The position numbers and the translations under genes were made by a program. DNA of 64,000 nucleotides from Candidatus Omnitrophota bacterium (GTDB lineage: Bacteria; Omnitrophota; Gorgyraeia; Gorgyraeales; Gorgyraeaceae). Each line of letters starts with the position of its first letter. Positions within the stretch are counted from its first letter, which is position 1. Of this stretch, positions 9,341 to 50,153 are shown in pieces. The notes beneath the pieces are model-generated. The model searched no databases and had not been told where the DNA came from. It was given only the letters and a program-made list of their open reading frames with translations. Where the stretch lies: the NCBI GenBank assembly GCA_018819285.1, contig JAHJQM010000029.1:280-64279 (forward strand). Direction: 5' to 3'.

Positions 9341-9375
9341 AAGTTGACACTCTAACAATGTTAGAGTGTCAACTT
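9341..9375. repeat. REP-A palindrome copy 1 (aagttgacactctaacaatgttagagtgtcaactt, perfect 17-bp arms)
   Basis: 35-nt perfect inverted repeat 10 nt after the rluD stop (9385-9387). It is the consensus member of a dispersed family. Confidence 0.9.
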
Positions 9376-9384
9376 GTTTGAGTT

Positions 9385-10404
9385 TTAGGCAAAAAATTGT
9401 TTTATATCTGATGGGATTTCTGCGGAAAATTCGACTTGAATATTTTTGGAAGGATGGATAAAGCTTATTGATTTTGCATGAAGAGCTTGTCTTGATAATC
9501 CTTGGATACTAGGGCCCTTGTAAAGCGCATCTCCTAAAATCGGATGGCCTATATGCGAGAAATGTATGCGGATTTGATGAGTCCTGCCTGTCTTCGGAGC
9601 CACTTCAAGAATTGTAAAATTTTTTTCTTTATTCCTGGCAATTACTTTATAATGCGTTACTGCTTCTTTTCCAAAATATCTATCAACCACCATTCTCATT
9701 CTATTTTTTTTATCATGATTAACGGGCAGATCTATTATCCCTTCTTCTAGATCAATAATACCTTTTGCAATCGCAATGTAAGTTTTAGCAATGGTCCTAT
9801 TTTTTAACTGGCTTGAAAGTTTGCGTAACGCAACGCCTGTTTTCGCGACAAGCATCACGCCTGATGTATCCTTATCTAACCTGTGAACTATCCCGGGCCT
9901 CAAAACATGTTTTTCGTCTTTTGTTTCACGCGGCTTGTTAAATTCCGTAAGAAAACCTTTGTAGTTTAAGAGCGCGTTTACCAAAGTCCCTGAATAATTT
10001 CCGCATGCCGGATGCACCACCATTCCAGCTGGTTTATTAATTACTAAGATATCTTCGTCCTCATAAATAATATTCAGCGGTAATTTTTCAGCCTTTGGTA
10101 TTTTTTTATCACACACTATAAGGCTTTCTTTTTCCAGTTTTTCTAAATCTATTTCTATTTTATCGCCCGCATTTACTTTGTGGCCCACTTTCACTGCTTT
10201 ACCTTTCAATAAAATTTCACCTTTTTGTATCATCTCCTGGACAATAGTCCTGGATATCTCAAGCTCTGGCTTCATTCCCACCAGATGCTTTAAGCTGACA
10301 TTATCTATCCGTTTGCCGGTATCTTCTAATACTACTTCAAAAGTATACATTTCTATTATTTGCCCTTTCTTAATCAGCCTAACTTTACAAATGGTGCCTG
10401 GCAC
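9385..10404 (-). CDS. rluD: 23S rRNA pseudouridine synthase, RluA/RluD family, with N-terminal S4-like domain
   Basis: Carries IIYEDEDILVINKPAGMVVHP and the catalytic motif HRLDKDTSGVMLVAKT. The true start may be the internal MYTFE. Confidence 0.85.
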   Translation of the reverse strand: MPGTICKVRLIKKGQIIEMYTFEVVLEDTGKRIDNVSLKHLVGMKPELEISRTIVQEMIQKGEILLKGKAVKVGHKVNAGDKIEIDLEKLEKESLIVCDKKIPKAEKLPLNIIYEDEDILVINKPAGMVVHPACGNYSGTLVNALLNYKGFLTEFNKPRETKDEKHVLRPGIVHRLDKDTSGVMLVAKTGVALRKLSSQLKNRTIAKTYIAIAKGIIDLEEGIIDLPVNHDKKNRMRMVVDRYFGKEAVTHYKVIARNKEKNFTILEVAPKTGRTHQIRIHFSHIGHPILGDALYKGPSIQGLSRQALHAKSISFIHPSKNIQVEFSAEIPSDIKQFFA

Positions 10405-10426
10405 GAATTGTAAAGTTAGGGATATT

Positions 10427-13400
10427 TTATACTATGGCTCTTAAGAAAGCTATAAGAAATTTCAGAGAGACTCGTATAAATAATTTAACAAGGGGCTTAT
10501 CTTTTATTAATTCTGCTATTGGCGGGCTAAAACGGTAATAGAGATTAACGAATTCTTTACCCAGTTTTGATTTTAATAGGCACTGATCTCTGAATTCGCG
10601 CAAGGCTACCACTTCTTTAGCATCAGTAGAGCCAAATGCTGCGGTAGCGATGAAACAACTACCGCCGCCACCGCCACTACTATCTTGCTGTCCAGGATTC
10701 TCAGGCTGAGCAACATTTTCATTATTTTTTTCAGCGCCTGCGATTCCGAATATAGTAAAATGGCTTGTCTTTACTGTAACTATATTTTCTTTTGGAAATA
10801 CAAAACTGCCTGAAAGAATTTTCCATTCAACATTTTTTTCATCATACCAGTATACCTCCAAGGTTAACTCATCAATATTTTTATCATCTACAATACCATC
10901 TCCGTTTTCGTCAATATATGGTATAGATATAATCATTTCCTTATTAAAAGGGCCTTTGTGGTTTTCAAATTGATATTCCCGGTATTCTCCTATAGGCTTA
11001 TTTTGGTTAATATTGATTTCTCTCTGAATCTGGCTTGATTCCAATCTTTTTATATTAACAATGTCATCTTGCTCCAATATATCTGCCGGCATAACTAAAG
11101 ATGTTTTATCTGATAATTCTATTCTGCCTATTTTATACTTATATACATTATTTGGCGAGACGATTGGCTTTTTATCATTATTTTTTCCATTTGAAACATA
11201 GATAGTTTCTTGGCACGACATAATAACACGGCCTATTGTCCTGACATCAAGATTTGTCATGTAGGTTCCTGAATCATTATATGTAAATTCCGCCTGAGGA
11301 ACCAGAGTTACGAGGTCAATTATCCCATCATTGTCAAAATCCCATAAATATTCCACATCGCTTATTTCATCTTCAATTTCAAAGGAAAATCTTACTGCAA
11401 GGGGTGCATTGCCCTTTTGCGGATTGATAATAATTTTGCCTTTTTTAATATCCTCTGGATCAAAAATCCCGAATCTAATTTCTGATTTGGCCTGGTTGGA
11501 TAAATTGTTTGAGTCTGTAACGCGTACAGTAGGCGTGTAAACGCCTGGCTCGCAATAAGTGTGTTTAATTATGCCAGGGCTTAATGAAGTATAATCGAAT
11601 ACGCCATCGCCTTCAAAATCCCATTGATATTTTTGGATTAAATTGCTGCTATTTACAGCAGCTTCAAAATTTATTTCCAGAGGGACATTTCCTGTAACAG
11701 GCGATACTGAGGAACTAACGCTCAAAACTTTAGGGTCTTCTATCTCAATTAAAGCCTTCTCTGAGCCAGTTAATCCGTCAAAGCTGGTAACCCTGAACTC
11801 CGCATTATATTTTCCTGGAAGGGCATAGGTTTTAACAACCTCCCCTGATTCAGATGAATTAGCTTCAAAAACGCCGTCACCATCGAAATCCCATTCATAT
11901 TTCGATACGCCTTGAGGGCAAAATGCATCGCCTTTAAAAAATACCTTGCAAGGCGCAACGCCTTCTAAAGGAAACGCATTTAAATAGACGCCTGGCGCGT
12001 CAGGATTTTTAGCTACATTAATAGTAACTGTATAGGTATTCGTGATTCCGTTTTTATCTGTTACGCGTAACTTTGCAGGAAAGCTGCCTTCGCCTGTATA
12101 TATAAAAACAACCTCCCCTGATTCAGGCGAACTGAAATCATATATGCCTTTGCCATCAAAATCCCATTCGTATTTAACTATTCTTTTGAACTTACTGATA
12201 GCTTCTGACTTAAAATGCACTTCGAGCGGGGCCATGCCATTTAAAGGTTCAGCCAGCGACTTTGCTTCCAAGATTATAGGCAAAGAATCGGAAACTATTA
12301 TTTTAACTTTTTCTGAGGCCTTGACTTTGCCATCGCTGACAATAAATGTTACAAAATATTCTCCTGTTTGATTTTCTACCGGCTTCCAGAAAAATCTTTT
12401 TACCCATGGATCAAAACTGGCTCCGCGAGGAAGCGTTTCTGCAGAATAAATAAGCAAATCTCCGTCTATATCAACGGCTTCAACAAAAAATTCTAAACTA
12501 TCTCCTGCTATTATTTCTTTTTCGCCTATAGTAAATAAAACGGGCTCGTGATTTTTCTTTGGAATTTCTTTTTCGCCCACGTCAAAAAATATTGAACCCT
12601 GGCCGATCTCTCCAAATTTATACATAACCCTGTAAATCCCATGCCTGTCTAATTCAGGAGAGACTATTTTTTCGAATTTATTGACGCCTTTTTGCAGATT
12701 TACGTCTTCTTCAATGATATTCACGGCATCTGAATCCGGCTTTATTAAATACGCGCTTAACTTGATAGAACATGCTTCGCCTGATTCAATCTTCCAATTA
12801 AGAGCCACGTTTTCGCCGTCTTCGTAAATATCCTTATCGCATCCCGCTTTAATGATTTTAATGGAAGATGTTTCCGGCTTTTCCCCGTTTATTAAATAAG
12901 AATTTAAATAAAGGGATTTTCCGGATTCAAAATATATCCCATAATAAATTTTCTCATTGTCGTTCAGGCCGGGGATATTGAATTCGAGATCCTTTTCTTC
13001 ATTCAGGACAAAATCTATCTTCTTTTCATAATCACTGCATCTGGCCTCTGCAAAAAGCTTCAAGCCCTTCGCTGAGCTTAAATTTTTAACATTGAGCTTA
13101 AAGATACCGGCCTCTGCCTCAGCCTCAGCTTCAACCTTTACGCCTATTATTTTAAAATTTACCTTATGCGTCTCGTCTTTAAATTTATACTCTGCTTCAT
13201 AATTCCCTTCATCCGCATCTTCCGGGATTAAAAATTCGAACGCTATTTCTTTATCCTTGCCAGATCCTAATAATTCTGATCGCGTTTCATTGATTAGATC
13301 CTGGGATTTAAAATTTACTTCGCATTTTCCCTGCGCCTCGCCTTCATTTATAATCCTAAATCTAAATTTGGCTTTTTCTCCTGCGTTAAAACTAAGGCCT

Positions 13401-16400
13401 TCGTCTTCCAAATAGAAAACCTTAAAAATTGGCGCGCTAATTTTTTCGCCTATATAAAAGGCTTTTACGAACTTAACTGTTTCCTGAAAAATAGGGGATT
13501 TTAATGTTGCCTCTATGTAATATTTTCCTTTTCCCGCAATAGCCGGAATTTCAAAATTAATCACTGATTCATTTTCTATATTAGAAATTTCCTCGCGCTT
13601 TTGAAAGCATGCAAAATCGCTGCCAGAATATTCATCGCCAGAAGTATAAACTGCGAGAAGCTTATATCTTAAAAAAGAACTCTCGCTATTATATCTGTCG
13701 TAGACCTGGATATAATAATTAGACGGGTTAGCGGTTTCAAATTCCATTGTAACATCTTCGCCTGAGGCGCCGCCTTTTATGTCAATGTTCTGGCCAGACT
13801 CTTTATAAAGTTTCATATAAGGCCTTACATTGACCGGCATGTCTTTTAAATAAACAGTTATTTTGCCGGCGTCTGGTATAGATAATTTATAAAAATCGGA
13901 ATCTGCTTTGGTCGCAACTGTGGCAAAGTAATTTTTACCAAAATCAATAAGCCTTGCAGCCTCTTTTGTTTCATTGGGCTCGTATTCATCCAGGGTTTTT
14001 ATAAAATTAAAATTCAGGGAGTAGCTATTTAGCGAAGAGACATTTCCATACCAGTCTCTTACTAAAAGATAATAAAGGCCGGGTTTGTCAAATTCTGTCT
14101 CAAGGATTACATTTTCATTGGCTGAGCCGCCTTTCATTGAGATTACTTTGCCTGATGTATCATAAATTTTTATAGAAGGCCTCAGGCCTTGCGGCACTTC
14201 GTACATTTTTATATATAAAACGCCCTTTTCCTGGATATTGAATTTAAAAAAGTCTTCATCTCCGGTACTATAGATTTTACCGTGTATTCTTGAATCCACA
14301 TCTATCTCGTTTGCGTTTGTAAAAGCGCTGTTAGGCTCTATCTCCTCAGAATCCTGATATATAGCCGGGTCCAATGTATCATTAAAAATATTTTCGCCTT
14401 CGTTTATCTGTATATTTTTTGATATATTGCCAGGCGACGCAGTTAAAAGATAATTTCCAACAGGCACATAGATAAATTTAAACAGGCTATCGCCTGAAGT
14501 TACGGCAAATCTAGTTGAGGTATTCGAACTGGCAACGTTCACAGGTTCCAGCGTAATGGTCGAACCTATTGAATTTTCAATAACGCCTGACAGATTTCCA
14601 TATTTTGACGGCGTTAAATTTATATCCAGATTGTTGTCTCCTGGAAAAATTTCAATATCTTTTGAAACAGTGTCGAAAGCCGGGGCTTTTATACTGATAA
14701 CTCTATGACCTTTATCAAGGCCTTTTAACCTGTATTTGCCGTCTTTATTTGTATAAATGCCTTCTATTATGGCGCCTTTTATAACAGCGCCGTTATCATC
14801 TCTTACTGTCCCATATAAATCCCATGAATTCAATTCCGGAAAAACTCTAATATCAAGATAACCTTTTTCTATTATTTCTCCGATATTTTTAATTTTAACG
14901 CTCGCAGATATAAGCTGATTCTTCGGATAATTATTTTCCATATTTACAATTAAATCCACGTTCAGGCCAGGGATACTGTAAGATTCTGTAGCGATTTCTG
15001 TATCTTCGCCATCACTTAAAGGCTTTGGGCCTTCGAAACATATGCTTTTAAATCCAATAAGCCTGGAATTCGAAAATGTGCTAAGTTTAGCTTTGCATGT
15101 TCCTCTTGAAATATCCTCTGGTATAGCGAAACTCTGAGGCCAGGACCCGGAGCCAAGCTCTGCTAATTTGATCTCCGAGGAACAATAATAAATTTGTTTG
15201 TTGCTAGAGTCGGTTATATCCAGGATGGTCAGGATATTAAGCGAGACGCTGGTTTTATTTTTAAAATTTACGTTTATTGAGGCTATTTCGCCAGGCAAAT
15301 ACTGCTCTTTATCACTAGACATATCTATATCCAAGCTTGGCTCAAAGACATTAATGCCCCGCTCTGCCTTGCCTATAAAAACATTCTGCGAAGAATAAAA
15401 ATAAGAACTCAACAGGTCTGTTGAGCTAGCGATTATTTCCTTATCGAATGAAATTGTTTTGCCGGCAGGAACTACGACTATGTCATTATATTCTATTTTA
15501 TGATGCGGGAGTATTGCTTTATATTTTATCGACTCATCCCTGGCAGTATTATTTCTCATGTGAAATGTAAACGTGGCAACGTTGCCAGAGATATAATTTT
15601 CACTGTCGCTTGTTATGTCAAAGGTAAAATCCGGGTTTTGTGAAGCGTCTGGCGGTGGCTTGGCAAAAGAAAAATAAATTCCTTCTGCTTGAGGCTGGAT
15701 GGCTTTAGAATCAATGTCGTAAAGAATGTAGTCCACAGAATAGATTCCTGGTTTTTCCAGGGCCTGGCCTAACTTATACGCCGCTTCGTTTGAAATATTC
15801 CTCTCTAAAACCTCACCTTCAGGCGACTTTAATATCATTTCTATCTTGTTAAAATCAAGGTTTGTCTGTATTGGGATTTCAAAACTCTCGCCAGTTTTAT
15901 ATTCTGGCAAGTTTTTGCCGGACTTTGCCCATCGAAGGAGATCTCTTACGAGATTAATCTCTGAAGAACTTGCCTGGCCATTTAAATAGCCCCAGTCTGA
16001 ATACATAGAAGCTACTATGACGACGCCTTTTCCGAAATTATACAAAAGCATTGCAGGCATCTGGTTTTTTGACCTTCTAAGTAAAATTGCGGCGCCATCC
16101 GGATAATCCGTAAAATATCCGTCCAGTTTTATATCAGGGTATAATTCATTTTGCGAACTAAGTACCTGGTGGAAATTTTCAATATAGGCGGCTTTTGTAT
16201 GACAGGACGCATCTTCCTGCCAGCCGTATGCATTTAGTCTTTCTCCTGGAAGGGCGTTAAAATCATAGCCATATTGCTGGGAAAAACATATAATAGCGCC
16301 TCCATTTTTTACATACTCTGAAAGTTTATTTTTGAATATCGCTGAATGCGAAAGGCCTGAAAGCCCGCCCGTAGGAATTACCAGGACCTTTTGTTCGTCA

Positions 16401-17821
16401 AGTATATAAGGCTCGAACGTATGGTCTATAATCCTGACCGGCTCTCCGACTTTTTCTATTATTAACTTTCTCATCTCATTGTAATAACCATTTGCCAATA
16501 CAGCTATATCAGGAGATTCAAGGTATTCCCTGGACGCATATATATAATAATCATGGAGAAGTTTATTTTTCTGGCCCAGGGCTTCTTCCCATTCATTGAT
16601 AATATTATCTACGTTAGCGCCTGTTGAAATTTCCAATTGAGCGTCTTCAAATAGAGTTAATATTTCCCAGTATTTCATTAGATATGCCTTATTTTTCCTG
16701 ACCGCAATCCTGAGATATAAATCAAAAAGCTTCCTGGGGCTCATATCTATGCCTTTGGCAAAATCTACTGTATCGAATGTATCATCAGGATGGTCTATGC
16801 CAGGGCCTGATAAAAATGCCAACTGTTTATTCTTATAAGGCTTCAACCTCTTGAAAAAAATGCTTTCTCCGCCTTTTTCCAGTTTATCAAGCATGACTGC
16901 TAAAACTGTTTCACTATTGCAGAAATTAAAATGATTCACGCCCAAAAAATACTCATACCCTATGTCTTCTCTTTTTTCTATAACAGGGCTCCAGTCGCCT
17001 ACTATCAAGTCTTCGCTGCCGATTGCAATAAATGTCTTTATGCGCTTATCAGGCCCAAGATCCTGTATGCTTTTTAAGAACATGCTGTCCGGAGATAGTT
17101 CTTTTCTCAAGGCTTCGGATTCCATGCGGCTGCCAGGTATCCATATTTTATTATCAGCTACTTCCAATGCATATTGGCAGGCAGTCATGCTCTGGGCAAA
17201 AACCGATGGAATTACGCCCAGGATATTTTTGATATTTGCTACAAGGCTTGTAGAGCCGTTGTTGGGCGGGGCAAGTTCTATTATTGTCTCTATATTGTCT
17301 CTATAAGGGACTAAACCGAGCGAGCGCGAATACGCTGTTACCGCAAGACCTCCTGTAGAGTGGGTTATTACATCTGCCTTTTTATAATTTCTATCCGGGA
17401 GATTCTTATTTAGATAATCTATCCCTTCTTTTAACGCTACGCCTACATCATCGCCTAAATCCCTTACACCATAACCCCATGAATTGCCAATCATAGGCGC
17501 GTCTATCTTATGATCTCCATTTGTATCAACCGCATTTCCGCGCATATCAACGACAATTACATCGTAGCCGCGCTCAGTTAATTTTTTTACATAATTCTTA
17601 TTCTTATCACTCCAAACTTCTCCGCTAGAGTTAAAGCCGTGGACTAATAATATAGGCCTTTCTTTAATATCATTTGCAGCGTTTTCGTAACAATAAAAAT
17701 TTATTTTTGCGCCTTTGGTGCTCTCAACAGTAAAAGGCTTGGCAGGCTCATCCAATGCAAAAATATTATTTGCAAAAAAGATGAAAAATATGCCTGATAT
17801 TAAATGAATGATCAGCTTCAT
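10427..17821 (-). CDS. giant (2,464 aa) secreted multidomain protein with lipase/esterase, GATase1/ThuA-like, CARDB/Ig-like, four PPC, carboxypeptidase-regulatory-like and four PKD domains, and a C-terminal CFI-box-like putative sorting domain
   Basis: Signal peptide MKLIIHLISGIFFIFFANNIFA. Lipase-like nucleophile VITHSTGG around aa 155 (compare B. subtilis LipA AHSMGG). VLVIPTGG...GGAIICF matches a GATase1/ThuA-like domain. Repeated ...DxDFYKL / DEDFFKF PPC-like modules. An EAEAEAEA linker. Four PKD signatures: YEWDFDGKG, YEWDFDGDG, YQWDFEGDG, YLWDFDNDG. C-terminus is GGGGGSCFIATAAFGS...REFRD...YYRFSPPIAELI, read at 10621-10680. Confidence 0.85.
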   Translation of the reverse strand: MKLIIHLISGIFFIFFANNIFALDEPAKPFTVESTKGAKINFYCYENAANDIKERPILLVHGFNSSGEVWSDKNKNYVKKLTERGYDVIVVDMRGNAVDTNGDHKIDAPMIGNSWGYGVRDLGDDVGVALKEGIDYLNKNLPDRNYKKADVITHSTGGLAVTAYSRSLGLVPYRDNIETIIELAPPNNGSTSLVANIKNILGVIPSVFAQSMTACQYALEVADNKIWIPGSRMESEALRKELSPDSMFLKSIQDLGPDKRIKTFIAIGSEDLIVGDWSPVIEKREDIGYEYFLGVNHFNFCNSETVLAVMLDKLEKGGESIFFKRLKPYKNKQLAFLSGPGIDHPDDTFDTVDFAKGIDMSPRKLFDLYLRIAVRKNKAYLMKYWEILTLFEDAQLEISTGANVDNIINEWEEALGQKNKLLHDYYIYASREYLESPDIAVLANGYYNEMRKLIIEKVGEPVRIIDHTFEPYILDEQKVLVIPTGGLSGLSHSAIFKNKLSEYVKNGGAIICFSQQYGYDFNALPGERLNAYGWQEDASCHTKAAYIENFHQVLSSQNELYPDIKLDGYFTDYPDGAAILLRRSKNQMPAMLLYNFGKGVVIVASMYSDWGYLNGQASSSEINLVRDLLRWAKSGKNLPEYKTGESFEIPIQTNLDFNKIEMILKSPEGEVLERNISNEAAYKLGQALEKPGIYSVDYILYDIDSKAIQPQAEGIYFSFAKPPPDASQNPDFTFDITSDSENYISGNVATFTFHMRNNTARDESIKYKAILPHHKIEYNDIVVVPAGKTISFDKEIIASSTDLLSSYFYSSQNVFIGKAERGINVFEPSLDIDMSSDKEQYLPGEIASINVNFKNKTSVSLNILTILDITDSSNKQIYYCSSEIKLAELGSGSWPQSFAIPEDISRGTCKAKLSTFSNSRLIGFKSICFEGPKPLSDGEDTEIATESYSIPGLNVDLIVNMENNYPKNQLISASVKIKNIGEIIEKGYLDIRVFPELNSWDLYGTVRDDNGAVIKGAIIEGIYTNKDGKYRLKGLDKGHRVISIKAPAFDTVSKDIEIFPGDNNLDINLTPSKYGNLSGVIENSIGSTITLEPVNVASSNTSTRFAVTSGDSLFKFIYVPVGNYLLTASPGNISKNIQINEGENIFNDTLDPAIYQDSEEIEPNSAFTNANEIDVDSRIHGKIYSTGDEDFFKFNIQEKGVLYIKMYEVPQGLRPSIKIYDTSGKVISMKGGSANENVILETEFDKPGLYYLLVRDWYGNVSSLNSYSLNFNFIKTLDEYEPNETKEAARLIDFGKNYFATVATKADSDFYKLSIPDAGKITVYLKDMPVNVRPYMKLYKESGQNIDIKGGASGEDVTMEFETANPSNYYIQVYDRYNSESSFLRYKLLAVYTSGDEYSGSDFACFQKREEISNIENESVINFEIPAIAGKGKYYIEATLKSPIFQETVKFVKAFYIGEKISAPIFKVFYLEDEGLSFNAGEKAKFRFRIINEGEAQGKCEVNFKSQDLINETRSELLGSGKDKEIAFEFLIPEDADEGNYEAEYKFKDETHKVNFKIIGVKVEAEAEAEAGIFKLNVKNLSSAKGLKLFAEARCSDYEKKIDFVLNEEKDLEFNIPGLNDNEKIYYGIYFESGKSLYLNSYLINGEKPETSSIKIIKAGCDKDIYEDGENVALNWKIESGEACSIKLSAYLIKPDSDAVNIIEEDVNLQKGVNKFEKIVSPELDRHGIYRVMYKFGEIGQGSIFFDVGEKEIPKKNHEPVLFTIGEKEIIAGDSLEFFVEAVDIDGDLLIYSAETLPRGASFDPWVKRFFWKPVENQTGEYFVTFIVSDGKVKASEKVKIIVSDSLPIILEAKSLAEPLNGMAPLEVHFKSEAISKFKRIVKYEWDFDGKGIYDFSSPESGEVVFIYTGEGSFPAKLRVTDKNGITNTYTVTINVAKNPDAPGVYLNAFPLEGVAPCKVFFKGDAFCPQGVSKYEWDFDGDGVFEANSSESGEVVKTYALPGKYNAEFRVTSFDGLTGSEKALIEIEDPKVLSVSSSVSPVTGNVPLEINFEAAVNSSNLIQKYQWDFEGDGVFDYTSLSPGIIKHTYCEPGVYTPTVRVTDSNNLSNQAKSEIRFGIFDPEDIKKGKIIINPQKGNAPLAVRFSFEIEDEISDVEYLWDFDNDGIIDLVTLVPQAEFTYNDSGTYMTNLDVRTIGRVIMSCQETIYVSNGKNNDKKPIVSPNNVYKYKIGRIELSDKTSLVMPADILEQDDIVNIKRLESSQIQREININQNKPIGEYREYQFENHKGPFNKEMIISIPYIDENGDGIVDDKNIDELTLEVYWYDEKNVEWKILSGSFVFPKENIVTVKTSHFTIFGIAGAEKNNENVAQPENPGQQDSSGGGGGSCFIATAAFGSTDAKEVVALREFRDQCLLKSKLGKEFVNLYYRFSPPIAELIKDKPLVKLFIRVSLKFLIAFLRAIV

Positions 17822-18486: not shown

Positions 18487-18496
18487 GCCCCCTTCA

Positions 18497-18533
18497 AAGT
18501 TGACACTTCTGTCATTGTCAGAAGCGTCAACTT
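18497..18533. repeat. REP-A copy 2 (aagttgacacttctgtcattgtcagaagcgtcaactt; 2 mismatches in arms)
   Basis: Lies between the XRE stop (18543-18545) and the SD of the lipoprotein gene. Confidence 0.85.
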
Positions 18534-18542
18534 TGACTTAAG

Positions 18543-18896
18543 CTATCTCCTATTTCTTGATTTTCTGCGCTCTTTATACAATGTATTGATTACTGGATAA
18601 TAAATGTTTACAGCGGCAGAGCTAGACTCTTTAACTATATTGATTATTTTCTTTTTCTTGTAGTCAGATGAGTTTAGTTTTTCATCATTTAATAAAAGTT
18701 CGTAGATATCTACTTCTAAGGCCTCTGCAATGCGGGAAATCATATAAAAGGTAGGGAGTTTTTTGCAGCTTTCAATTCTGCTTATATATGTAGGATGAAC
18801 ATTTACTTCTTCTGCTAATCTTAACTGCGTCCAACCTTTGGAGTTTCGAATTGTCCTGATTCTATTGGCTAGAATACTGCTATCATTTGCTATGCT
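18543..18896 (-). CDS. XRE-family helix-turn-helix transcriptional regulator
   Basis: MSIANDSSILANRIRTIRNSKGWTQLRLAEEVNVHPTYISRIESCKKLPTFYMISRIAEALEVDIYELL is a classic XRE HTH. The track ORF starts at 19031 and overlaps REP-A copy 3, so the likely true start is ATG 18896 (MSIAN) with an AAAGG SD. Confidence 0.7.
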   Translation of the reverse strand, partial: SIANDSSILANRIRTIRNSKGWTQLRLAEEVNVHPTYISRIESCKKLPTFYMISRIAEALEVDIYELLLNDEKLNSSDYKKKKIINIVKESSSAAVNIYYPVINTLYKERRKSRNRR

Positions 18897-19013: not shown

Positions 19014-19048
19014 AAGTTGACACTCTGACAATGTTAGAGTGTCAACTT
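19014..19048. repeat. REP-A copy 3 (aagttgacactctgacaatgttagagtgtcaactt); contains the RAYT stop codon
   Basis: The RAYT ORF ends ...CCA AGT TGA, with TGA being rc of tca at 19042-19044 inside the palindrome arm. Confidence 0.85.
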
Positions 19049-19938
19049 GGCGTATAGCTAGACTGAAGCTTATAAATGGCCTGACGGGTCAAATTTAACT
19101 TTTCTGCAATTTCAGAAACATGAAAACCTCTTGATTTTAACTGTTCTATCAAAAACATTCTTGCCTTAATCTCTTGAGGATTAGTAAGTCTTCCTTTTTT
19201 CCTTAATTGCTCTATCCGCTTTTCAATATCGTAATCGTCTGGAAGATTGCGCTCTATGCGCCATTCTTTATTTTTTTCTCTCAACATCCTTGCCATCGCA
19301 TCCAGGGCATCAGGTTTTTCAAATACATTACTTATCCTGCCGACATTAAATCCTTTTAACAGATTTCTATATTTCATCTTGGCGCGACATATATCATTAT
19401 CCAATATTTCAAGAATAAATTTATAATCCACAAACGTCTCCTTTTCTGCATCGTCTAAAAATAATGCGCACGAAGACCATCTGTAATCAACAGGATTATT
19501 AGCCAATTCTGCTTTTGCAGGATTTACATGTATATACAATGATGATGCTAAAAGATAACTATCATCAAAACACAATGCCGATCTATATGCTCCGCAAAAT
19601 ACGTGCCCTTTTCTCTGGTATTTTTTATTGAAATATACAGCATATCGTTGCAACAGCTTTTTCATTATATCCGACATATTTGATCCAAGAAACTTTAATA
19701 GTAAATGAAGATGATTTGACATAAGCACAAAACTTAATACATTACACTTAAACTTACAGAGAACTTCTTTTATCAAATGAAGCATATAAAGATAATCTGC
19801 GTCTTCTAAAAATAGGGGCTCTGTTCCTGATGCATGCTGAGTAATATGACTTATAGCGCCTTCAAAACAATATTTATTTCTAGCCCTGAAGTAACGCTTC
19901 ACCTCCCCCCGCTCTATCAATTCAATTATATCTGCCAC
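19042..19938 (-). CDS. IS200/IS605-like Y1 HuH transposase, REP-associated tyrosine transposase (RAYT)-like, with a C-terminal ~120-aa HTH-containing extension
   Basis: LFLEDADYLYMLHLIKEVLCKFKCNVLSFVLMSNHLHLLLKF is the HuH motif NHLHLLL. ...LQRYAVYFNKKYQRKGHVFCGAYRSALCFDDSYLLASSLYIHVNPAKAELANNPVDYRWSSCALF matches the Y1_Tnp fold, with a catalytic Tyr candidate in RYAVYFNKKY. The C-terminal GFHVSEIAEKLNLTRQAIYKL is HTH-like. Likely start is GTG at 19938 after AGGAGG (rc of 19945-19950). The track start at 19962 is a TTG inside REP-A copy 4. Flanked by REP-A copies 3, 4 and 5. Confidence 0.8.
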   Translation of the reverse strand: MADIIELIERGEVKRYFRARNKYCFEGAISHITQHASGTEPLFLEDADYLYMLHLIKEVLCKFKCNVLSFVLMSNHLHLLLKFLGSNMSDIMKKLLQRYAVYFNKKYQRKGHVFCGAYRSALCFDDSYLLASSLYIHVNPAKAELANNPVDYRWSSCALFLDDAEKETFVDYKFILEILDNDICRAKMKYRNLLKGFNVGRISNVFEKPDALDAMARMLREKNKEWRIERNLPDDYDIEKRIEQLRKKGRLTNPQEIKARMFLIEQLKSRGFHVSEIAEKLNLTRQAIYKLQSSYTPS

Positions 19939-19960: not shown

Positions 19961-19995
19961 AAGTTGACAAACTAACATTGTAAGAGTGTCAACTT
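19961..19995. repeat. REP-A copy 4 (aagttgacaaactaacattgtaagagtgtcaactt)
   Basis: Upstream of the RAYT start. Confidence 0.85.
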
Positions 19996-20077: not shown

Positions 20078-20112
20078 AAGTTGACAAACTAACATTGTAA
20101 GAGTGTCAACTT
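20078..20112. repeat. REP-A copy 5, identical to copy 4
   Basis: Ends 8 nt after the thrC stop (20120-20122). Confidence 0.85.
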
Positions 20113-21176: not shown

Positions 21177-22484
21177 TTATTTTTCTAACCTTATAACTAC
21201 ACTTTTCTTTTTTATGGCAGGTAGTTTATTGATCCTGGATAATGCGGCCTGCATGTCCAGCTCTTTTGCCTCATGGGTAAGCATAACTATGGGGACAATA
21301 TGCGCCTCGCGGCGCTCTTTCTGCACAACGCTCGCGATGCTGATATTATGCCTGCCTAAAAGGTCCGCTATGTTCGCGAGGACGCCCGGCTTATCTATAG
21401 CAGAAAAATGCGCGTAGTATCTGGTAATAACCTCGTCCATTTTTCTAAGTTTTTTTATTTCACTATCTTTAGGGATTATCTGCTTCACTGAATTTTTTCC
21501 GCAGACAATATTATGACCAGCATCTACTATGTCGCTTATGACAGCGCTTACGGTAGGCAATTTGCCTGCGCCCTGACCATAGAATAACTGTTTGCCAACC
21601 AGATCAGCTTCTATAAATATCGCGTTATATGCGCCGGAAACAGATGAAAGCAGATGTTCTAAAGGTAAAAGAGTGGGATGTACTCTGGCTTCCAATTCAT
21701 CCCCATGGCATTTTGCTATTGCAAGAAGTTTTATTCCATAACCAAACTCTTTGGCATATTGGATATCTAAATTAGATATATCCTCAATACCTTCGACATA
21801 AATATCATCTAAATCCACTCTTTTTCCAAAAGCCAGAAGCGAAAGTATCGCAAGCTTATGGCTGGAATCCAGGCCTTTTATATCCAAAGAAGGGTCTTTT
21901 TCGGCATAGCCTTTTGACTGCGCTTCCTTAAGAGCAGTTTTAAAGCTTGAGTCCTCACTTGACATGCTGGATAATATGTAATTTGAAGTGCCGTTCAGAA
22001 TCCCGAATACGCTGGAAAATCTATTGCTTACCATGCCTTCGCGTATCGCTTTTATAATAGGGATTCCTCCTGCAACACTTGCCTCAAAATATATTTCTCT
22101 ATTTGAAATTTTGGCCTTCTGGAAAATTTCTTCGCCTTCAGCCGCAAGAAGCAATTTATTCGCAGTAACCACATGCTTGCCTTTTGACAATGCTTTTATC
22201 ACAATCTCTTTTGCAGGATGGATACCGCCTATTAATTCGATAATAATATGAATATCAGGGTCATTGATCACTTTACCAGCGTCTTTAGTAAGCATGCCCT
22301 TAGGGAGATTCACGTCTCTTTTTAAAGACAGGTCCTTGTCGCAGACTAATGAAAGATTAAAATCTATCCCGGTGCGTTTTAATAATAGGCCCTTCCTGGT
22401 CATTAGAAACTTTGCGACGCCAGATCCTATAGTTCCAAAACCTATCAAGCCGATATTTATCTTACTCTGCGATTTTTTATTCAT
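21177..22484 (-). CDS. hom: homoserine dehydrogenase with C-terminal ACT domain
   Basis: N-terminal [13 protein letters not shown] is a Rossmann motif. [11 protein letters not shown] is the HSD signature. Confidence 0.85.
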
Positions 22485-22845
22485 GATCCACCAATTTTCT
22501 TATAGCCTCTCTTACCTTTTCTTCCACCTCTATAAATCTTGCTCTCGTTTCATACATGATAACTTTTACCCGTTTTATTGAATCAATAACTTGCACTTGC
22601 ACTATAACATAATCCGAAAATTCAGGCAACCTAAGTTTCATCTTCAGCACAACATCCTTTTCAAATTTTCTGTCAGAGATAAACAACATCCCATCTTCAC
22701 ATATATTTTTAGTCTGAGATATGTCGAATTTTAACTCTTCGCTTTTTATAGGCGCATATGAAACAATATAGCTTCCGTTTATCCTCTTAAATCTTCTCCG
22801 CTCAAACTGGATATTGCCAGGCTGGGATTCCTGTTTATTGTCCAA
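22477..22845 (-). CDS. PilZ-domain protein
   Basis: ERRRFKRI together with DISQTKNICEDGMLFIS gives the RxxxR...D/NxSxxG c-di-GMP binding pattern. Confidence 0.5.
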   Translation of the reverse strand: MDNKQESQPGNIQFERRRFKRINGSYIVSYAPIKSEELKFDISQTKNICEDGMLFISDRKFEKDVVLKMKLRLPEFSDYVIVQVQVIDSIKRVKVIMYETRARFIEVEEKVREAIRKLVDHE

Positions 22846-29119: not shown

Positions 29120-29154
29120 AAGTTGACACTCTAACATTGTCATGTTGTCAACTT
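29120..29154. repeat. REP-A copy 6 (aagttgacactctaacattgtcatgttgtcaactt; inner part diverged)
   Basis: The proC stop TGA (29140-29142) lies in the centre of the element. Confidence 0.8.
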
Positions 29155-29907
29155 GCTGGAGCGGTGGGCTGCGTGCTTAACCGCCTTTTTTAAGATTGCT
29201 TCTAATTTTTCCTGCTTAAACACCTTCAGGGCGGCTTCGGTGGTGCCGCCTTTGGAGGCAACCTTTTTTACCAGATCTTCTATGGGTAAATTTTTGGATT
29301 TAATAACCTCTGCTGCTCCGATAAATGTAGCCTTGGCTAATTTTAAGGCAAGGTCTTTTTTAAAACCTTGCGCCTCAGCTGCTTTGGCCAATAAATACGT
29401 GAATAAGAAATAATACGCAGGGCCTGAGCCGCTTACAGCAGTAACAGCGTCCATCATCTTCTCTTTAACCTCTACAATCTCGCCAAGATTTGAAAAAATC
29501 CTGTCCGCTATTTTAAAATCTTCTGCTTTAGCGAATCTACCGCGGCTTATGGCAGAAATGCCTTTTCCGACCATGGCAGGCATATTGGGCATAACCCTGA
29601 TTACCTTTATTCTGCCCAAAACCTTTTCTATAAAGAGCGTGGTTACGCCCGCAGCTATGGAAATAATAAGCTTTTCTTTTGCGTAAGGCTTTATGTCTTC
29701 TAAAACGCCTCTTATATCCTGCGGCTTTACAGCCAGGATGATAATATTTGACTGCCTGGCTAAATCAATATTATTACGAGCTATAGAAATATTTTTATAT
29801 TTAATGTTGCGTAATTTAGATATATCCGAGTCGCTAACGAGCACCTTCTCTTTAATGCCTAACGCTATTATCATTCCCATATTGCCTGCGCCGATAATGC
29901 TGATCAT
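29140..29907 (-). CDS. proC: pyrroline-5-carboxylate reductase
   Basis: MISIIGAGNMG Rossmann motif and P5CR C-terminal domain. Confidence 0.85.
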   Translation of the reverse strand: MISIIGAGNMGMIIALGIKEKVLVSDSDISKLRNIKYKNISIARNNIDLARQSNIIILAVKPQDIRGVLEDIKPYAKEKLIISIAAGVTTLFIEKVLGRIKVIRVMPNMPAMVGKGISAISRGRFAKAEDFKIADRIFSNLGEIVEVKEKMMDAVTAVSGSGPAYYFLFTYLLAKAAEAQGFKKDLALKLAKATFIGAAEVIKSKNLPIEDLVKKVASKGGTTEAALKVFKQEKLEAILKKAVKHAAHRSSKLTT

Positions 29908-29917
29908 ATTTTACCTC

Positions 29918-36165: not shown

Positions 36166-36200
36166 AAGTTGACACTCTAACAATGTTAGAATGTCAACTT
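36166..36200. repeat. REP-A copy 7 (aagttgacactctaacaatgttagaatgtcaactt; 1 mismatch)
   Basis: Sits in the 48-bp ftsW-murG intergenic space, 3 nt after the ftsW stop and just before the murG SD. Confidence 0.85.
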
Positions 36201-38577: not shown

Positions 38578-38616
38578 CAACTTTACACAAGCGGCATTGT
38601 CGGTTGTGTAAAGTTG
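38578..38616. repeat. REP-A variant (caactttacacaaGCGGCATTGTCGGttgtgtaaagttg; 13-bp perfect arms)
   Basis: Arms AACTTTACAC versus AAGTTGACAC of the main family share the ACAATGT/ACATTGT core. Ends 8 nt after the mraY stop. Confidence 0.75.
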
Positions 38617-39749: not shown

Positions 39750-39784
39750 AAGTTGACACTCTAACAATGTCACAGTGTCAACTT
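39750..39784. repeat. REP-A copy 8 (aagttgacactctaacaatgtcacagtgtcaactt); contains the murF stop
   Basis: murF ends ...ATA AGT TGA with TGA at 39778-39780 inside the arm. Confidence 0.85.
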
Positions 39785-42635: not shown

Positions 42636-42651
42636 ATATACCTATCTTAAC

Positions 42652-42688
42652 AACTTGACACTTTTGACATTGTCAGAAGTGTCAACTT
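42652..42688. repeat. REP-A copy 9 (aacttgacacttttgacattgtcagaagtgtcaactt); contains the ftsI stop
   Basis: ftsI ends ...GCA AGT TGA with TGA at 42682-42684. The inner sequence is close to copy 2. Confidence 0.85.
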
Positions 42689-44400
42689 GCTGGCTTTTTA
42701 TTATTTTTCTCTGCCACTTTTTTGTCTTTTGGCCAGATCTTGTAGTAGCTCATGAGCTCTGCGGCTACTTTTTTAAATACAGGCGCACAGACTACTCCTC
42801 CATAGTAAATCGGCCGCGGCTCGTCCATTATTACAACTATAACAAACTTTGGATTATCGGACGGCACAAAGCCTATAAATGAGGCTGTAAATTTGCTATG
42901 CGAATAAGTGCCGTTAGACTCTACTTTTTGGGCTGTGCCTGTTTTACCTGCAGGAAAATATCCTTCAACCTCTGCAAGTTTTGCTGTGCCGCTATCGACA
43001 ACGCTTCTTAATATAGTTCTCATTTCTCTGGCAGTTTCTTCTGAAATCACCCTCTGGGGTTTCTTTGGCTCAAATTTCTGTATAACATTACCTGTGCAGT
43101 CCTGTATCATATCAACTATTCTTGGCTTTACGAGATTGCCTCCGTTTGCAAGGGTTGACATTGCGCAGGCAAGCTGAAGAGCTGTTACGGTCACTTCCTG
43201 GCCCATTGAAATACTGCAGAGAGAAAGTTTTGACCAGGTATTGGGATGAGTAGTGATGCCATTTACTTCTCCTGGAAGTTCGATGCCTGTCTTTTCTCCA
43301 AATCCAAACTTCTTTATATATTTATACAGCCTGTCTTTTCCGAGCCGCTGGGCTGCTTTCATTGTGCCGATATTAGAAGAATATTTGATCACATCTCTAA
43401 ATTCCAGCCAGCCATGAGGTTTATGATCATGATATTTATGGCCGCACCATTTATATTCGCCGTTCTCGCAGAAAAACTTGTCGCTGGGCTGAACTGCCTT
43501 TTCTTCAAGGAGGCTGGAGGCTGTTATTATTTTAAAACTTGAGCCAGGTTCAAAAAAATCGCATATGGCTCTATTTCTTCTAGAGTCAGGGGGTTCAGCC
43601 TTGGCATTATTCGGGTCAAAATTAGGCCTATTGCTAAGCGCAAGTATATCTCCTGTGAAAGGGTCCATTACAATGATACACGCGCCCTTGGCGTGATATT
43701 TTTTAAAACCATTTTCCAGTTCGCGTTCTGCAAACGACTGGATTAAACTGTCTATGGTGAGTACAAGATTATCTCCGTCAATCGGCTGTATTTCCTTATA
43801 TTCATACCCAGGGACTTCGCGTTGCTTGGCGTCTCTTATCGCATATCTATAGCCTATAACGCCTTTTAAATATTTATCGAATTTCAGTTCCAGGCCTTCA
43901 AGGCCGTTATTATCTATGTCTGTAAAACCAAGGATATGGCTTGCGATTACACCATTAGGATAGGCCCTATGGGGCTCTTTGATAAAATCTATACCTTTAA
44001 TATTAAGGGCGCGGATAACCCTAGCAGTATCCTGGGAAACCTTACGGCCCAACCAAACAAAACCTCTTTTCTGGTTGAGTTTCTTATATATCTCATCCTG
44101 GCTTAGACCAAGGATAGACGCAAGTTTCTGGCTGTCTATGCCTTTATCTTTTACCTTGAAAGGTTCGGCAAATATTGAAACCAGATTTATGTTTATAGCG
44201 AGTTCTTTTAGGTTACGGTCGTAAATTACGCCGCGTTTAGGGAGAAGCGGCACCAAAAGCCTATATTGATTTGAAGCAATATTTGACAGGGATCTTGCTG
44301 CGCCTAGCTGTACAAAAACTAGCCTGACACATAGAAGCACGAACGCTATGATTAAAGTATATAGGACTTTCCTTATACGGGAAGGGGTTCCTTTGTACAC
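42682..44400 (-). CDS. ftsI: penicillin-binding protein (FtsI-type transpeptidase)
   Basis: N-terminal TM helix, SSFK (SxxK), SSN and KTGTA motifs. Confidence 0.85.
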   Translation of the reverse strand: MYKGTPSRIRKVLYTLIIAFVLLCVRLVFVQLGAARSLSNIASNQYRLLVPLLPKRGVIYDRNLKELAININLVSIFAEPFKVKDKGIDSQKLASILGLSQDEIYKKLNQKRGFVWLGRKVSQDTARVIRALNIKGIDFIKEPHRAYPNGVIASHILGFTDIDNNGLEGLELKFDKYLKGVIGYRYAIRDAKQREVPGYEYKEIQPIDGDNLVLTIDSLIQSFAERELENGFKKYHAKGACIIVMDPFTGDILALSNRPNFDPNNAKAEPPDSRRNRAICDFFEPGSSFKIITASSLLEEKAVQPSDKFFCENGEYKWCGHKYHDHKPHGWLEFRDVIKYSSNIGTMKAAQRLGKDRLYKYIKKFGFGEKTGIELPGEVNGITTHPNTWSKLSLCSISMGQEVTVTALQLACAMSTLANGGNLVKPRIVDMIQDCTGNVIQKFEPKKPQRVISEETAREMRTILRSVVDSGTAKLAEVEGYFPAGKTGTAQKVESNGTYSHSKFTASFIGFVPSDNPKFVIVVIMDEPRPIYYGGVVCAPVFKKVAAELMSYYKIWPKDKKVAEKNNKKPAS

Positions 44401-44779: not shown

Positions 44780-44782
44780 TTT

Positions 44783-45679: not shown

Positions 45680-45866
45680 TATTGCTTTTCAGTATCTTAT
45701 AAATCTCCTCACTAGCCGCAAGACACTTTGGGTCAATATTCAAAGACCGGGTTCTGCGTATACATTCAACAGGAATATCAAAAAAATTTGTTTCACAAAC
45801 TTTACATTTTACAACTACTCTGGAATTATGATTGCGTAACATAAGACCTCCTTTGCTATTCCTCAA
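45657..45866 (-). CDS. possible small Cys-rich (CxxC...C...C) protein between mraZ and rsmH
   Basis: 69-aa ORF with KCKVCETNFFDIPVECIRR...C. It fills the 176-nt mraZ-rsmH gap and overlaps both neighbours slightly. May be spurious. Confidence 0.25.
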   Translation of the reverse strand: MRNSKGGLMLRNHNSRVVVKCKVCETNFFDIPVECIRRTRSLNIDPKCLAASEEIYKILKSNNGKKLFA

Positions 45867-46328: not shown

Positions 46329-46336
46329 GTAATCAA

Positions 46337-46365: not shown

Positions 46366-46438
46366 GTAAAAATTCTAACTTTTTTGGGATAATACTATAT
46401 ACGGGATATATTGTTATTTATAGACACTAAATATAGTG

Positions 46439-46477
46439 CAACTTTACACAACCGACAATGTCACTTGTGTAAAGTTG
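46439..46477. repeat. REP-A variant (caactttacacaaCCGACAATGTCACttgtgtaaagttg), inverted orientation relative to copy 38578-38616
   Basis: Same arms as the 38578 copy, with the inner 13-mer being its reverse complement plus 2 mismatches. Ends 2 nt after the ribF stop. Confidence 0.75.
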
Positions 46478-46478
46478 T

Positions 46479-48024: not shown

Positions 48025-48030
48025 AATTGG

Positions 48031-49345: not shown

Positions 49346-49361
49346 TTCCGCTCCTTATTTC

Positions 49362-50081
49362 TTATTCAAGACCAGGCCTTGGTCGCAAATTACTGTGCTC
49401 AAGACCTGGTCTTGAGCATACTAGTTTGCTGAATGTTTCCAAACATTTCTTAGGGTTTTTCTCTTTTAGGAATAGCTCTATCTCTTTTCTAATCCTGCCT
49501 ACATTCACTTCGCCTAGAAATCCACCTAGCACCGCTTCTTTCATGAGTTTTTTTGTGTGCGGCTCTATTTTAAAACCAAACCTCACTGAAAACCTCACAG
49601 CCCTGAAAATCCTGGTCGGGTCATCCATAAAACTTTTATCATGCAATACTCTTATCACGCCCTTTGTTAAATCTTTTTGGCCGCCGTAGAAATCCACTAA
49701 TCTGCCAAAGCCTTTTTTACCTATGGCCAAAGCCATTGCATTTATTGTAAAATCCCTTCTGAAGAGATCATCCTTTATCTTGCCAGGCTTTACAGTAGGA
49801 TACGCTGCCGGATATTTGTAAGTCTCTTTGCGCGCCGTAACAATATCTATTCTTTTCCCTTTAAGCTCTATGGTTGCTGTGCCAAACGCCTTGTATGTTA
49901 TTAATCTGCCCTTTAATTTTTTATTCAAAACTTCTGCAAACTTAATCCCATCCCCTTCTACTACAAAATCCAGGTCATAATTAGACATACCTAGCAGCTT
50001 ATCCCTCACAGGCCCGCCTACAATATACGCCTTTATCTTTAATCTATCCGCAATTTTTCCGACAATTTGCGTGACATCCAT
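49362..50081 (-). CDS. cca: CCA-adding / poly(A) polymerase head-domain protein, apparently truncated (239 aa); last 19 codons encoded by a REP-C palindrome
   Basis: YIVGGPVRDKLLG...DLDFVVEGD head motif and RRDFTINAMA neck motif are present, but the body and tail domains are absent. The C-terminus ...LVCSRPGLEHSNLRPRPGLE* is the translation of the palindrome at 49395-49418. Confidence 0.7.
   Translation of the reverse strand: MDVTQIVGKIADRLKIKAYIVGGPVRDKLLGMSNYDLDFVVEGDGIKFAEVLNKKLKGRLITYKAFGTATIELKGKRIDIVTARKETYKYPAAYPTVKPGKIKDDLFRRDFTINAMALAIGKKGFGRLVDFYGGQKDLTKGVIRVLHDKSFMDDPTRIFRAVRFSVRFGFKIEPHTKKLMKEAVLGGFLGEVNVGRIRKEIELFLKEKNPKKCLETFSKLVCSRPGLEHSNLRPRPGLE
49395..49418. repeat. REP-C palindrome copy 1 (gtgctcaagacctggtcttgagca), preceded by a half-copy tcaagaccagg at 49366-49376
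   Basis: 12-bp arms. Translated as part of the cca ORF. Confidence 0.75.
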
Positions 50082-50118
50082 AATTCACAATCTCTCAATT
50101 TTTTCAAACCTATCATAT

Positions 50119-50153
50119 AAGTTGACAAACTAACAATGTCAGTTTGTCAACTT
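50119..50153. repeat. REP-A copy 10 (aagttgacaaactaacaatgtcagtttgtcaactt); contains the stop of glycosyltransferase gene 50147..51283
   Basis: The gene ends ...GCA AGT TGA with TGA at 50147-50149. Confidence 0.85.

Follow-up and report, generated by a model that had tools for sequence, protein, structure and literature searches.

The window analysed here is a 64-kb stretch of a metagenome contig (JAHJQM010000029.1) from a Candidatus Omnitrophota bacterium, to which all window counts refer. It contains a family of short palindromes dispersed at gene junctions, together with a gene for an HUH/Y1 transposase that resembles the RAYTs, the tyrosine transposases associated with repetitive extragenic palindromic (REP) sequences. 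The minus strand carries nearly all genes of the window. Read from right to left, a cluster with nrnA, truB and ribF leads into the dcw operon (mraZ to ftsA), followed by proC, pnp, ileS, gpsA, a tRNA-Pro gene, hom and thrC. To the left of thrC lie the Y1 transposase gene, a gene with an XRE-type helix-turn-helix (HTH) domain, a Tricorn_N-like gene and an open reading frame (ORF) of 2464 aa, and beyond these rluD, a c-di-GMP-I riboswitch and a second giant ORF that leaves the window at its left end. Loci from other genomes are denoted below by L and a number.

Palindromes at gene 3′ ends

The pattern AAGTTGACA-N15-19-TGTCAACTT matched the window exactly eight times, each match being 35 nt long (0.00 matches in 100 shuffles of the window), and an inverted-repeat scan added two 37-nt copies of this form (arms at 18494-18536 and 42651-42689) as well as three copies of a AACTTTACA type (38578-38616, 46439-46477 and 10378-10420). 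In total, 13 palindromes were identified, 10 of the AAGTTGACA...TGTCAACTT form and three of the AACTTTACA form. The same 13 sites, and no others up to E=1, were returned by a covariance model built on 32 copies and run with its filters off. A preliminary description of this DNA had counted 12 copies; its 10 of the main form are retained, and its two variants become three with the overlooked copy at 10378-10420.

The elements are 35-43 nt long, with arms of 17-21 nt that are 82-100% complementary, and copy 1 is, as described before, a perfect palindrome (arms 17+17). The arm AAGTTGACACTCTAACA has no internal palindrome, and 1 nt lies between the two arms. The feet are AAGTTGACA, AACTTGACA or AACTTTACA on both sides, and in no copy was a GTAG or CGTC tag found at the foot. 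All exact AAGTTGACA 9-mers in the window belong to palindromes, and the exact 9-mer search detected no solo arm of AAGTTGACA there. Palindromes occupy about 12 of the approximately 21 window spacers of at least 30 nt, at gene junctions 0.1-10 kb apart and with no regular spacing, in agreement with the earlier statement that they are not CRISPR repeats. An Rfam search of the elements gave no match.

Position is given as an offset, counted from the final base of the stop codon of the upstream gene to the AAG...CTT core of the element. For twelve of the 13 window copies, the offset relative to the gene that runs into them is -15 to +9 nt, and for these the earlier claim that each copy follows a stop codon by 0-10 nt or overlaps it is borne out; it fails for the copy at 19961 (+124), the second of a pair in the spacer between thrC and the transposase gene. 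At the loci of metagenome-assembled genomes (MAGs), nearly all copies have offsets between -15 and +16 nt relative to a stop codon. No family copy was present in divergent (promoter) spacers of the window or the MAG loci. Six copies had been placed inside the dcw operon, which is a loose count: four are located between dcw genes (ftsI/murE, murF/mraY, mraY/murD and ftsW/murG), and the remaining two stand after ribF, upstream of mraZ, and after proC, downstream of ftsA.

Read directly from its sequence, the element offers a stop codon to each of the three reading frames of both strands, and the stop codon of the preceding gene is supplied by the element itself in five window copies and in roughly half of those in related genomes. 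Among the recurring offsets, -7 represents the TGA of TTGACA, -2 a TAA formed with a flanking T, and -15 the TAA or TGA of the inner TRACA motif. In one MAG (L036), a single copy ends two convergent genes, and in L200 ftsI reads in frame through a copy, using the only frame that has no stop codon there.

Empty junctions have spacers of 4-18 nt with a Shine-Dalgarno sequence directly after the stop codon, or the genes overlap. The only place where an insertion would be tolerated there is at the stop codon or immediately ahead of it, and it would be harmless because the element brings its own stop codons. Copies hug the stop codon also in long spacers, such as those after rluD (~300 nt) and ribF (185 nt) and at several MAG loci, which makes it possible that insertion favours the stop region. 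The murF/mraY junction, with an empty site ending ...ACAATTTGA and filled sites ending ...ACAACTTGA/CA.. and ...ATAAGTTGA/CA.., fits such a preference, and as a single case it proves nothing.

Table 1. Palindromes, genes and other features of the window, with palindromes located outside the Omnitrophota. Offset, distance in nt from the stop codon of the upstream gene to the element core.
Feature	Coordinates (strand)	Offset	Remarks
Palindrome, copy 1	9341..9375	+9	perfect 17-bp arms; rluD-like stop at 9385-9387; ~300 nt upstream of the c-di-GMP riboswitch
Palindrome, diverged AACTTTACA-type	10378..10420 (core 10381)	+9	after stop of 2464-aa ORF (10427-10429), before rluD
Palindrome, 37-nt core	18494..18536 (core 18497)	+9 (from coordinates)	AAGTTGACACTTCTGTCA.TGTCAGAAGCGTCAACTT; after stop of HTH_3 gene; 7 nt ahead of ATG of next gene
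Palindrome	19014..19048	-7	overlaps transposase 3′ end; gene TGA stop (19042-19044) is TGA of AAGTTGACA foot
Palindrome	19961..19995	+124	22 nt upstream of transposase start; proximal member of pair
Palindrome	20078..20112	+7	distal upstream copy; after thrC-like stop; 35-nt core identical to 19961 copy
Palindrome	29120..29154	-15	proC/pnp junction; proC frame ends at TGA of inner TGACA, tail ..SKLTT before the stop
Palindrome	36166..36200	+2	ftsW/murG junction; 11 nt to murG ATG
Palindrome, AACTTTACA-type	38578..38616 (core 38579)	+8	mraY/murD junction
Palindrome	39750..39784	-7	murF/mraY junction; murF stop is foot TGA; site empty in L199 and L200
Palindrome, 37-nt-core hybrid	42651..42689 (core 42652)	-7	AACTTGACA...TGTCAACTT; ftsI/murE junction; ftsI stop within foot
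Palindrome, AACTTTACA-type	46439..46477 (core 46440)	+2	straight after ribF stop, upstream of mraZ; 39/39 identical to same-site copy in L198
Palindrome	50119..50153	-7	after MGDG-synthase-like gene, stop within foot; inner arm AAC/GTT compensated
HUH/Y1 transposase, RAYT-like	19042..19938 (-)		298 aa; GTG start after AGGAGG; C-terminal HTH; 63% identity to L114 10085-10981
XRE-type HTH_3 gene	18543..18896 (-)		adjoins transposase; position kept in relatives
Palindromes, L007	7116-7148, 7983-8000		non-Omnitrophota
Palindrome, L064	1166-1200		non-Omnitrophota
Palindrome, L074	5739-5773		non-Omnitrophota
Palindrome, L005	5323-5357		non-Omnitrophota
Giant gene	1-8139 (-)		open frame >2713 codons; runs off left end
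ORF	8149-8763		weak ArsR-like HTH match; then giant ORF
c-di-GMP-I riboswitch	8954-9042 (-)		71 bits; upstream of ORF 8149-8763
Giant gene	10427-17821 (-)		2464 aa; hydrolase, PKD and CarboxypepD_reg domains; C-terminal GGGGGSCFIATAAFGS motif
PilZ-domain ORFs	22477-22845		
dcw cluster end	29140-31063		proC directly after ftsA; no ftsZ there in window or three related genomes
mraZ/rsmH gap, 176 nt	45680-45855 (-)		encodes ~61-aa ORF, MLRNHNS..CETNFFDIP..; kept in relatives, annotated as gene in 3/3 related contigs
Second palindrome family	49385-49429, 60968-61004		partial arm at 49366-49381
PolyA_pol-like ORF	49362-50081		

RNA folding of each copy in the mRNA sense, which had been proposed beforehand, gave a stable single hairpin in every case, with free energies between -12.7 and -27.1 kcal/mol (shuffles, -4 to -7). 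The copies are thus single long hairpins and not demonstrable doublets, which disagrees with the REPIN structure that had been suggested alongside the REP type. That the inner arms vary while palindromy is kept was confirmed over 32 copies, with 91% of cells paired and 10 of the 18 pairs changed on both sides. In shifted registers of the 32 copies pairing drops to 26-40%, and none of 500 shuffles of the alignment reaches the observed covariation score, a test that leans towards structure, the copies having been found partly via palindromy, and that is to be read as supportive and not as independent. As to the earlier claim of selection on a hairpin, the covariation is upheld, and the target of selection could be transposability, by recognition of single-stranded DNA (ssDNA), rather than a host function.

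Relative to transcription the central base is T in 15 and A in 13 copies, with no orientation bias, and on the mRNA-sense strand G-U mismatches outnumber A-C mismatches by 16 to 7 (two-sided p ~0.09, own calculation), an excess that is only suggestive. Within 20 nt no copy is followed by a U tract, save a T6 located 10 nt past the 19014 copy, and a terminator scan flagged none of the palindromes. Because no U tract follows the hairpins, intrinsic termination by them is unlikely.

A second, unrelated family of palindromes (..TGTGCTCAAGACC.GGTCTTGAGCA..) was also present in the window, one copy lying within the last ~22 codons of the PolyA_pol-like ORF and the other in the spacer of a divergent gene pair that encodes an epimerase and a glycosyltransferase.

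The RAYT-like transposase and its flanking palindromes

The only transposase found among the window ORFs checked is encoded by a single-copy gene between thrC and the HTH_3 gene. A start at its most upstream TTG was considered and rejected, as the lookup with this start was without a match and the GTG after AGGAGG is correct. The protein matches Pfam Y1_Tnp (E=1.4e-9) and the whole of the NCBIfam model REP_Tyr_transpos (NF047646, positions 7-146 of 146), and it carries the motifs HLH, YIHVNP, RWSS and HITQ. In an alignment of 57 homologues, HuH, Y...NP and WSS are invariant, as are the residues H76, H78, Y135 and N139. RAYTs are recognised by HuH, a catalytic Tyr in Y...NP, an N-terminal Thr and NP(L/V)(R/K)xG (PMC2817692, PMC6006769); the family consensus contains the RAYT-specific N-terminal Thr and YIHLNPVKAxL, and the window protein itself reads NPAKAE. 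The C-terminal third is an HTH domain, matched by HTH_23 in 40 and by HTH_28 in 30 of the 57 homologues, and residues 261-295 of the window protein gave weak matches to HTH_11, HTH_28 and HTH_8. For the AlphaFold model (pLDDT 79.7), the best Foldseek match in the Protein Data Bank (PDB) was 4ER8_A, the E. coli RAYT-REP complex, with E=1.8e-4, a target-normalised TM score of 0.71 and a root-mean-square deviation of 2.3 A over 142 columns, and the TnpA proteins of IS200, IS608 and ISDra2 ranked behind it.

Two palindromes with identical cores precede the transposase gene in the window, one copy overlaps its stop codon, and a further one stands after the neighbouring HTH gene. Both ends of an independent 971-bp assembly of the transposase gene fall within the flanking palindromes, which is what one expects of repeats that break assemblies. 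The gene order thrC, transposase, HTH, Tricorn_N, giant ORF and rluD is kept in three other genomes (L112/L119, L114 and L118), and homologues of 64-70% identity occupy the same slot with the same layout, their palindromes having AACTTGACA/AACTTTACA feet. The flanking layout of the window recurs in L114 and L118, and L112 has three upstream copies, with upstream and downstream copies in opposite orientation. The inverted counterpart of the upstream palindromes follows the HTH gene in L114, and on this basis the XRE-type HTH_3 gene may belong to the same unit as the transposase and the palindromes. The long palindromes that flank homologues with 52% and with 40-47% identity are different ones (TAATGAAACAAAA, AATGMGACATAT, TTACCCAAA and AAATCTGACAT), and most homologues at 27-37% identity have no flanking long palindromes.

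A genome-wide search for further copies had been named beforehand as the test of the family. In a palindrome scan of 185,579 species genomes, with counts that refer to the matches listed and are lower bounds, several matches per MAG were obtained in at least seven Omnitrophota MAGs, in the same stop-adjacent position, and the outcome that had been named as refuting, an absence of further copies or of a 3′ bias, did not occur. Among the matches listed, four from outside the Omnitrophota (Collinsella and three Alkalibaculum) are located within a few hundred bases of a homologous transposase, and these homologues, 27-35% identical to the window protein, stand beside palindromes with the identical AAGTTGACA...TGTCAACTT foot. 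In Collinsella a palindrome lies on both sides of the gene and several copies occur in the genome, and in L064 and L074 (Alkalibaculum) the transposase gene precedes an mcsA-like gene. The AAGTTGACA foot may thus be conserved across phyla. The flanking copies, the fold match to the RAYT-REP complex and a palindrome that changes together with the enzyme in relatives agree with the previous statement that a cognate transposase lies nearby. Many other matches outside the Omnitrophota were discarded as unrelated hairpins that share the 9-mer foot, or as chance (~43 chance matches expected, own estimate), and all seven matches from a scan of viral contigs were unrelated.

Palindrome sites shared with related genomes

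Occupancy in the dcw region was compared between the window and L198, L199 and L200, the relatives being found via their MurD homologues; none of the pattern-matching MAG loci spans the dcw cluster. L114 and L198 are one contig, that of the closest relative, whose housekeeping proteins are 88-96% identical to those of the window, against 63% for the transposase. Fast evolution of rayt genes has been described (PMC2817692). Two neighbouring genes also evolve fast in comparison with L114, namely the Tricorn_N-like gene (64% identity) and the giant ORF (80%).

All four genomes have a palindrome at ribF/mraZ, mraY/murD, ftsW/murG and proC/pnp. At ftsI/murE, three genomes have a full copy and L199 has a half arm; this solo AAGTTTACAAAATGA (5938-5941 region), positioned at the end of ftsI and abutting the murE start, may be all that is left of a copy since lost. 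The murF/mraY site is filled in two genomes and empty in the other two, L199 and L200, and no target-site duplication is visible between filled and empty sites. The hom/thrC site is empty in the window and in L112, and L114 has another palindrome there directly after the TAA. Other palindromic insertions right after stop codons were seen in relatives (L114 8800-8850 and 19422-19575; L200 15738-15807 and 16751-16804), one of them, with a CGTAGG-type foot (AACTTCGTAGGTGGC...GCCTCCTACGAAGTT), in the hom/thrC spacer, which is only 4 nt long in the window.

At shared sites each genome carries its own subfamily sequence, and at the site after rluD three genomes each have a different palindrome. When the window is compared with its close relative, the same base-pair flip in the foot (G-C to C-G) is seen at six shared sites, three further shared sites are unchanged at this pair, and the window copy at ftsI/murE is a hybrid. 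Since twelve parallel transversions are implausible, the flips argue for homogenisation of the copies within a genome, by replacement or conversion, and against independent mutation. Faster-than-neutral evolution of the elements is not borne out, since they are 62-100% identical between the window and L198/L114 and the non-coding DNA next to them is no more conserved (50-68%). There is thus no basis for claiming accelerated change, and homogenisation is argued from the recurrent flip of the base pair instead.

Relation to REP/RAYT systems and rival explanations

The palindromes agree with REPs in being imperfect stem-loop palindromes within the 20-40-bp class, in standing downstream of coding sequences and outside divergent spacers, and in flanking a RAYT-like gene, which supports the REP-type interpretation given in the preliminary description. 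The arrangement is that of a REPtron, opposite orientation being seen in L112 and, for the copy after the HTH gene, in L114, and the enzyme resembles RAYTs in its motifs, in the E. coli TnpA-REP fold and in single-copy, syntenic and vertical inheritance (copy number as in the window). In its workings, too, the Omnitrophota system resembles a REPtron (PMC2817692, PMC3733652, PMC5581495). As in the proteobacterial systems (E. coli yafM with Y/Z2 REPs, and the REPtrons of Pseudomonas and Stenotrophomonas), short dispersed imperfect palindromes, mostly after genes, accompany a single, vertically inherited Y1 gene that is flanked by copies, with one element overlapping its 3′ end; enzyme and element vary together, rayt evolves faster than housekeeping genes, and palindromy is compensatory (PMC2817692, PMC3733652). 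The differences are that here the GT[AG]G head is absent and a AAGTTGACA foot is present on both sides, that one long near-perfect stem with a ~3-nt loop takes the place of a bulged stem, that the enzyme of ~300 aa has a C-terminal HTH whereas E. coli RayT has 165 aa, and that the host belongs to the Omnitrophota and three-frame stops are built into the element. The searched literature contained nothing that connects Omnitrophota with REPs or IS200-type enzymes.

In its domain make-up, the enzyme resembles TnpA-Y1 subclass 2.1 (Quentin 2018), which corresponds to the TIRYT/TIRtron group (Di Nocera 2013). Shared features are a long Y1 protein with Y...NP, a serine motif beyond the tyrosine, and an HTH_23/HTH_28-like domain at the C terminus. 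TIRs are flanking inverted repeats with GGGGWSAS, some of them self-complementary and moderately abundant, and they may overlap the gene 3′ end (Di Nocera et al.); here, in turn, GGGGWSAS is absent and the flanking repeats are dense dispersed hairpins, 13 in 64 kb. The "double-foot" REPs of subclass 2.4, found in Cyanobacteria and Bacteroidetes, are alike in having a motif and its reverse complement at the ends of one long hairpin, and they may sit within reading frames without breaking them, as does the copy in ftsI of L200, but their foot is GT[AG]G...C[TC]AC, and their enzyme, in which HuH and Y are spaced further apart, lacks a C-terminal HTH. The HUH/Y1 fold is shared with IS200/IS605 elements (IS608, ISDra2), to which the system may also be likened in subterminal ssDNA hairpin recognition and in insertion beside a short motif without target duplication; here, however, the transposase gene stands outside the dispersed element, single-copy and syntenic, and the dispersed units are bare hairpins. 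The target of ISDra2 is TTGAT, which recalls the TTGA at the junctions of elements and stop codons in the window.

On this evidence we consider it likely that the palindromes are a REP-type family of non-autonomous hairpins that belongs to the RAYT-like transposase at 19042-19938(-) and is most likely copied or replaced by it. In a mechanism modelled on E. coli TnpA-REP and on IS608/ISDra2, the element would fold into a hairpin of 16-19 bp in ssDNA, for example at a replication fork, and the enzyme would recognise this hairpin together with the conserved AAGTTGACA foot. Cleavage through the tyrosine and rejoining of the strand would then lead to copying of the element or replacement of a resident copy. 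The data show the family and its positions, the fold and motifs of the enzyme, the flanking layout, the joint variation of element and enzyme and the sites that species have in common, whereas we infer catalysis on the hairpins, ongoing mobility and any effect at the RNA level. Survival next to stop codons may have two reasons, namely that this is the sole place in packed operons that spares both the coding sequence and the ribosome-binding site of the next gene, and that the element provides three-frame stops on either strand (TAA with a flanking T, the TGA of TTGACA, and the TAA or TGA of TRACA). Once transcribed, hairpins that have no U tract would probably act as 3′-exonuclease barriers, processing sites or obstacles to ribosomes, and not as terminators.

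Several observations weigh against this interpretation. Canonical REPs are defined by a GT[AG]G or CGTC tag (PMC3733652, PMC6006769), which the elements do not have, and the window copies are too symmetric for an orientation to be assigned. The combination of Y1 with HTH_23/HTH_28 matches subclass 2.1, near whose genes neither automatic nor manual searches found REP-like sequences (Quentin et al.). The NF047646 score of 57.8 bits is below the equivalog cutoff of 80, and a phmmer sequence search of the PDB found no Y1 structure, 4ER8 included. Of the six flipped sites, four adjoin the hypervariable transposase region and could go back to a single recombination, of which the two flipped sites in the dcw region are independent. 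Moreover, the elements have diverged to a degree similar to the adjacent non-coding DNA, and several of the shared copies could therefore be due to plain vertical descent.

It is possible, although we would call it unlikely, that the hairpins are RNA punctuation selected by the host, in which a stem after the stop codon shields the upstream cistron, directs processing or slows ribosomes and thus tunes operons such as dcw, the link to the transposase being secondary; as an added function this would be compatible with a transposase-borne REP family. Occupation of the same junctions in four related genomes (ribF/mraZ, ftsI/murE, mraY/murD, ftsW/murG and proC/pnp, counting the L199 half arm) points in this direction, as do pairing kept through two-sided changes, very stable stems located 11-37 nt before the next start codon, and the G-U excess in the mRNA sense. 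E. coli offers a precedent, as its REPs stabilise upstream mRNA, and those within ~15 nt of a stop codon reportedly stall terminating ribosomes and lower expression via transfer-messenger RNA and trans-translation, a finding ascribed to Liang, Rudd and Deutscher in 2015. In E. coli a subset of REPs stands so close to the stop codon, whereas here nearly all copies do and about half overlap it. A plain RNA hairpin, however, needs neither a two-sided 9-nt foot nor a homogenised sequence that tracks the transposase allele; in addition, the central base is without orientation bias, the G-U bias is weak, and some junctions are empty in relatives with no visible substitute.

Far less probable is a role as duplex binding sites, the 35-bp palindromes with four T(G/A)ACA motifs being bound by a dimer or tetramer for regulation or chromosome organisation, with the HTH domain of the transposase and the adjacent XRE-type regulator as candidate binders. 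The TTGACA within the conserved foot, the HTH domains encoded by both neighbouring genes, and the conserved spacer bracketed by the two copies upstream of the transposase would suit such sites, but divergent promoter spacers contain none of the copies, which follow stop codons within operons, the freedom of the inner arms to vary if paired indicates a folded single strand and not duplex read-out, and the partner enzyme belongs to a class whose substrates are ssDNA hairpins. Intrinsic terminators or attenuators, suggested by stable stems at gene 3′ ends, are hardly credible for copies that have no U tract and that the terminator scan misses, four of them between essential co-directional dcw genes with spacers of 46-65 nt and little room for a new promoter. 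The palindromes are dispersed and intergenic as are miniature inverted-repeat transposable elements, and yet an origin from a DDE-type insertion sequence unrelated to the Y1 gene can be nearly dismissed, as they comprise only 35-43 nt with no internal sequence between the arms, show no visible target-site duplication, flank Y1 genes across many lineages, and share the window with no other transposase among the ORFs checked.

The system is of a known kind, REP/RAYT, and new are its Omnitrophota host, the HTH-bearing type of enzyme, its density, the built-in stop codons and the homogenisation within a genome. REP/RAYT biology is thereby extended to an uncultured, host-dependent nanobacterial phylum, and the HTH-bearing subclass 2.1/TIRYT branch, a large and poorly understood one for which no REPs had been reported, gains a candidate substrate in the form of dispersed hairpins. 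The window also provides a test case for the coexistence of elements with extreme gene packing, as the copies reside within the essential dcw operon and donate stop codons and short protein tails. A further proposal, which we regard as rather doubtful, is that the elements are gene-end punctuation at the level of the host, a domesticated HUH-HTH enzyme rewriting fixed post-stop sites in place with the current master sequence. If true, this would account for the occupation of the same junctions in four species, in each genome by a sequence of its own, and the module would consist of a three-frame stop and an RNA stem separating cistrons in essential operons of ultra-small Omnitrophota genomes. 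Either in-place replacement or an RNA role, if true, would bear on why RAYTs and REPs are maintained.

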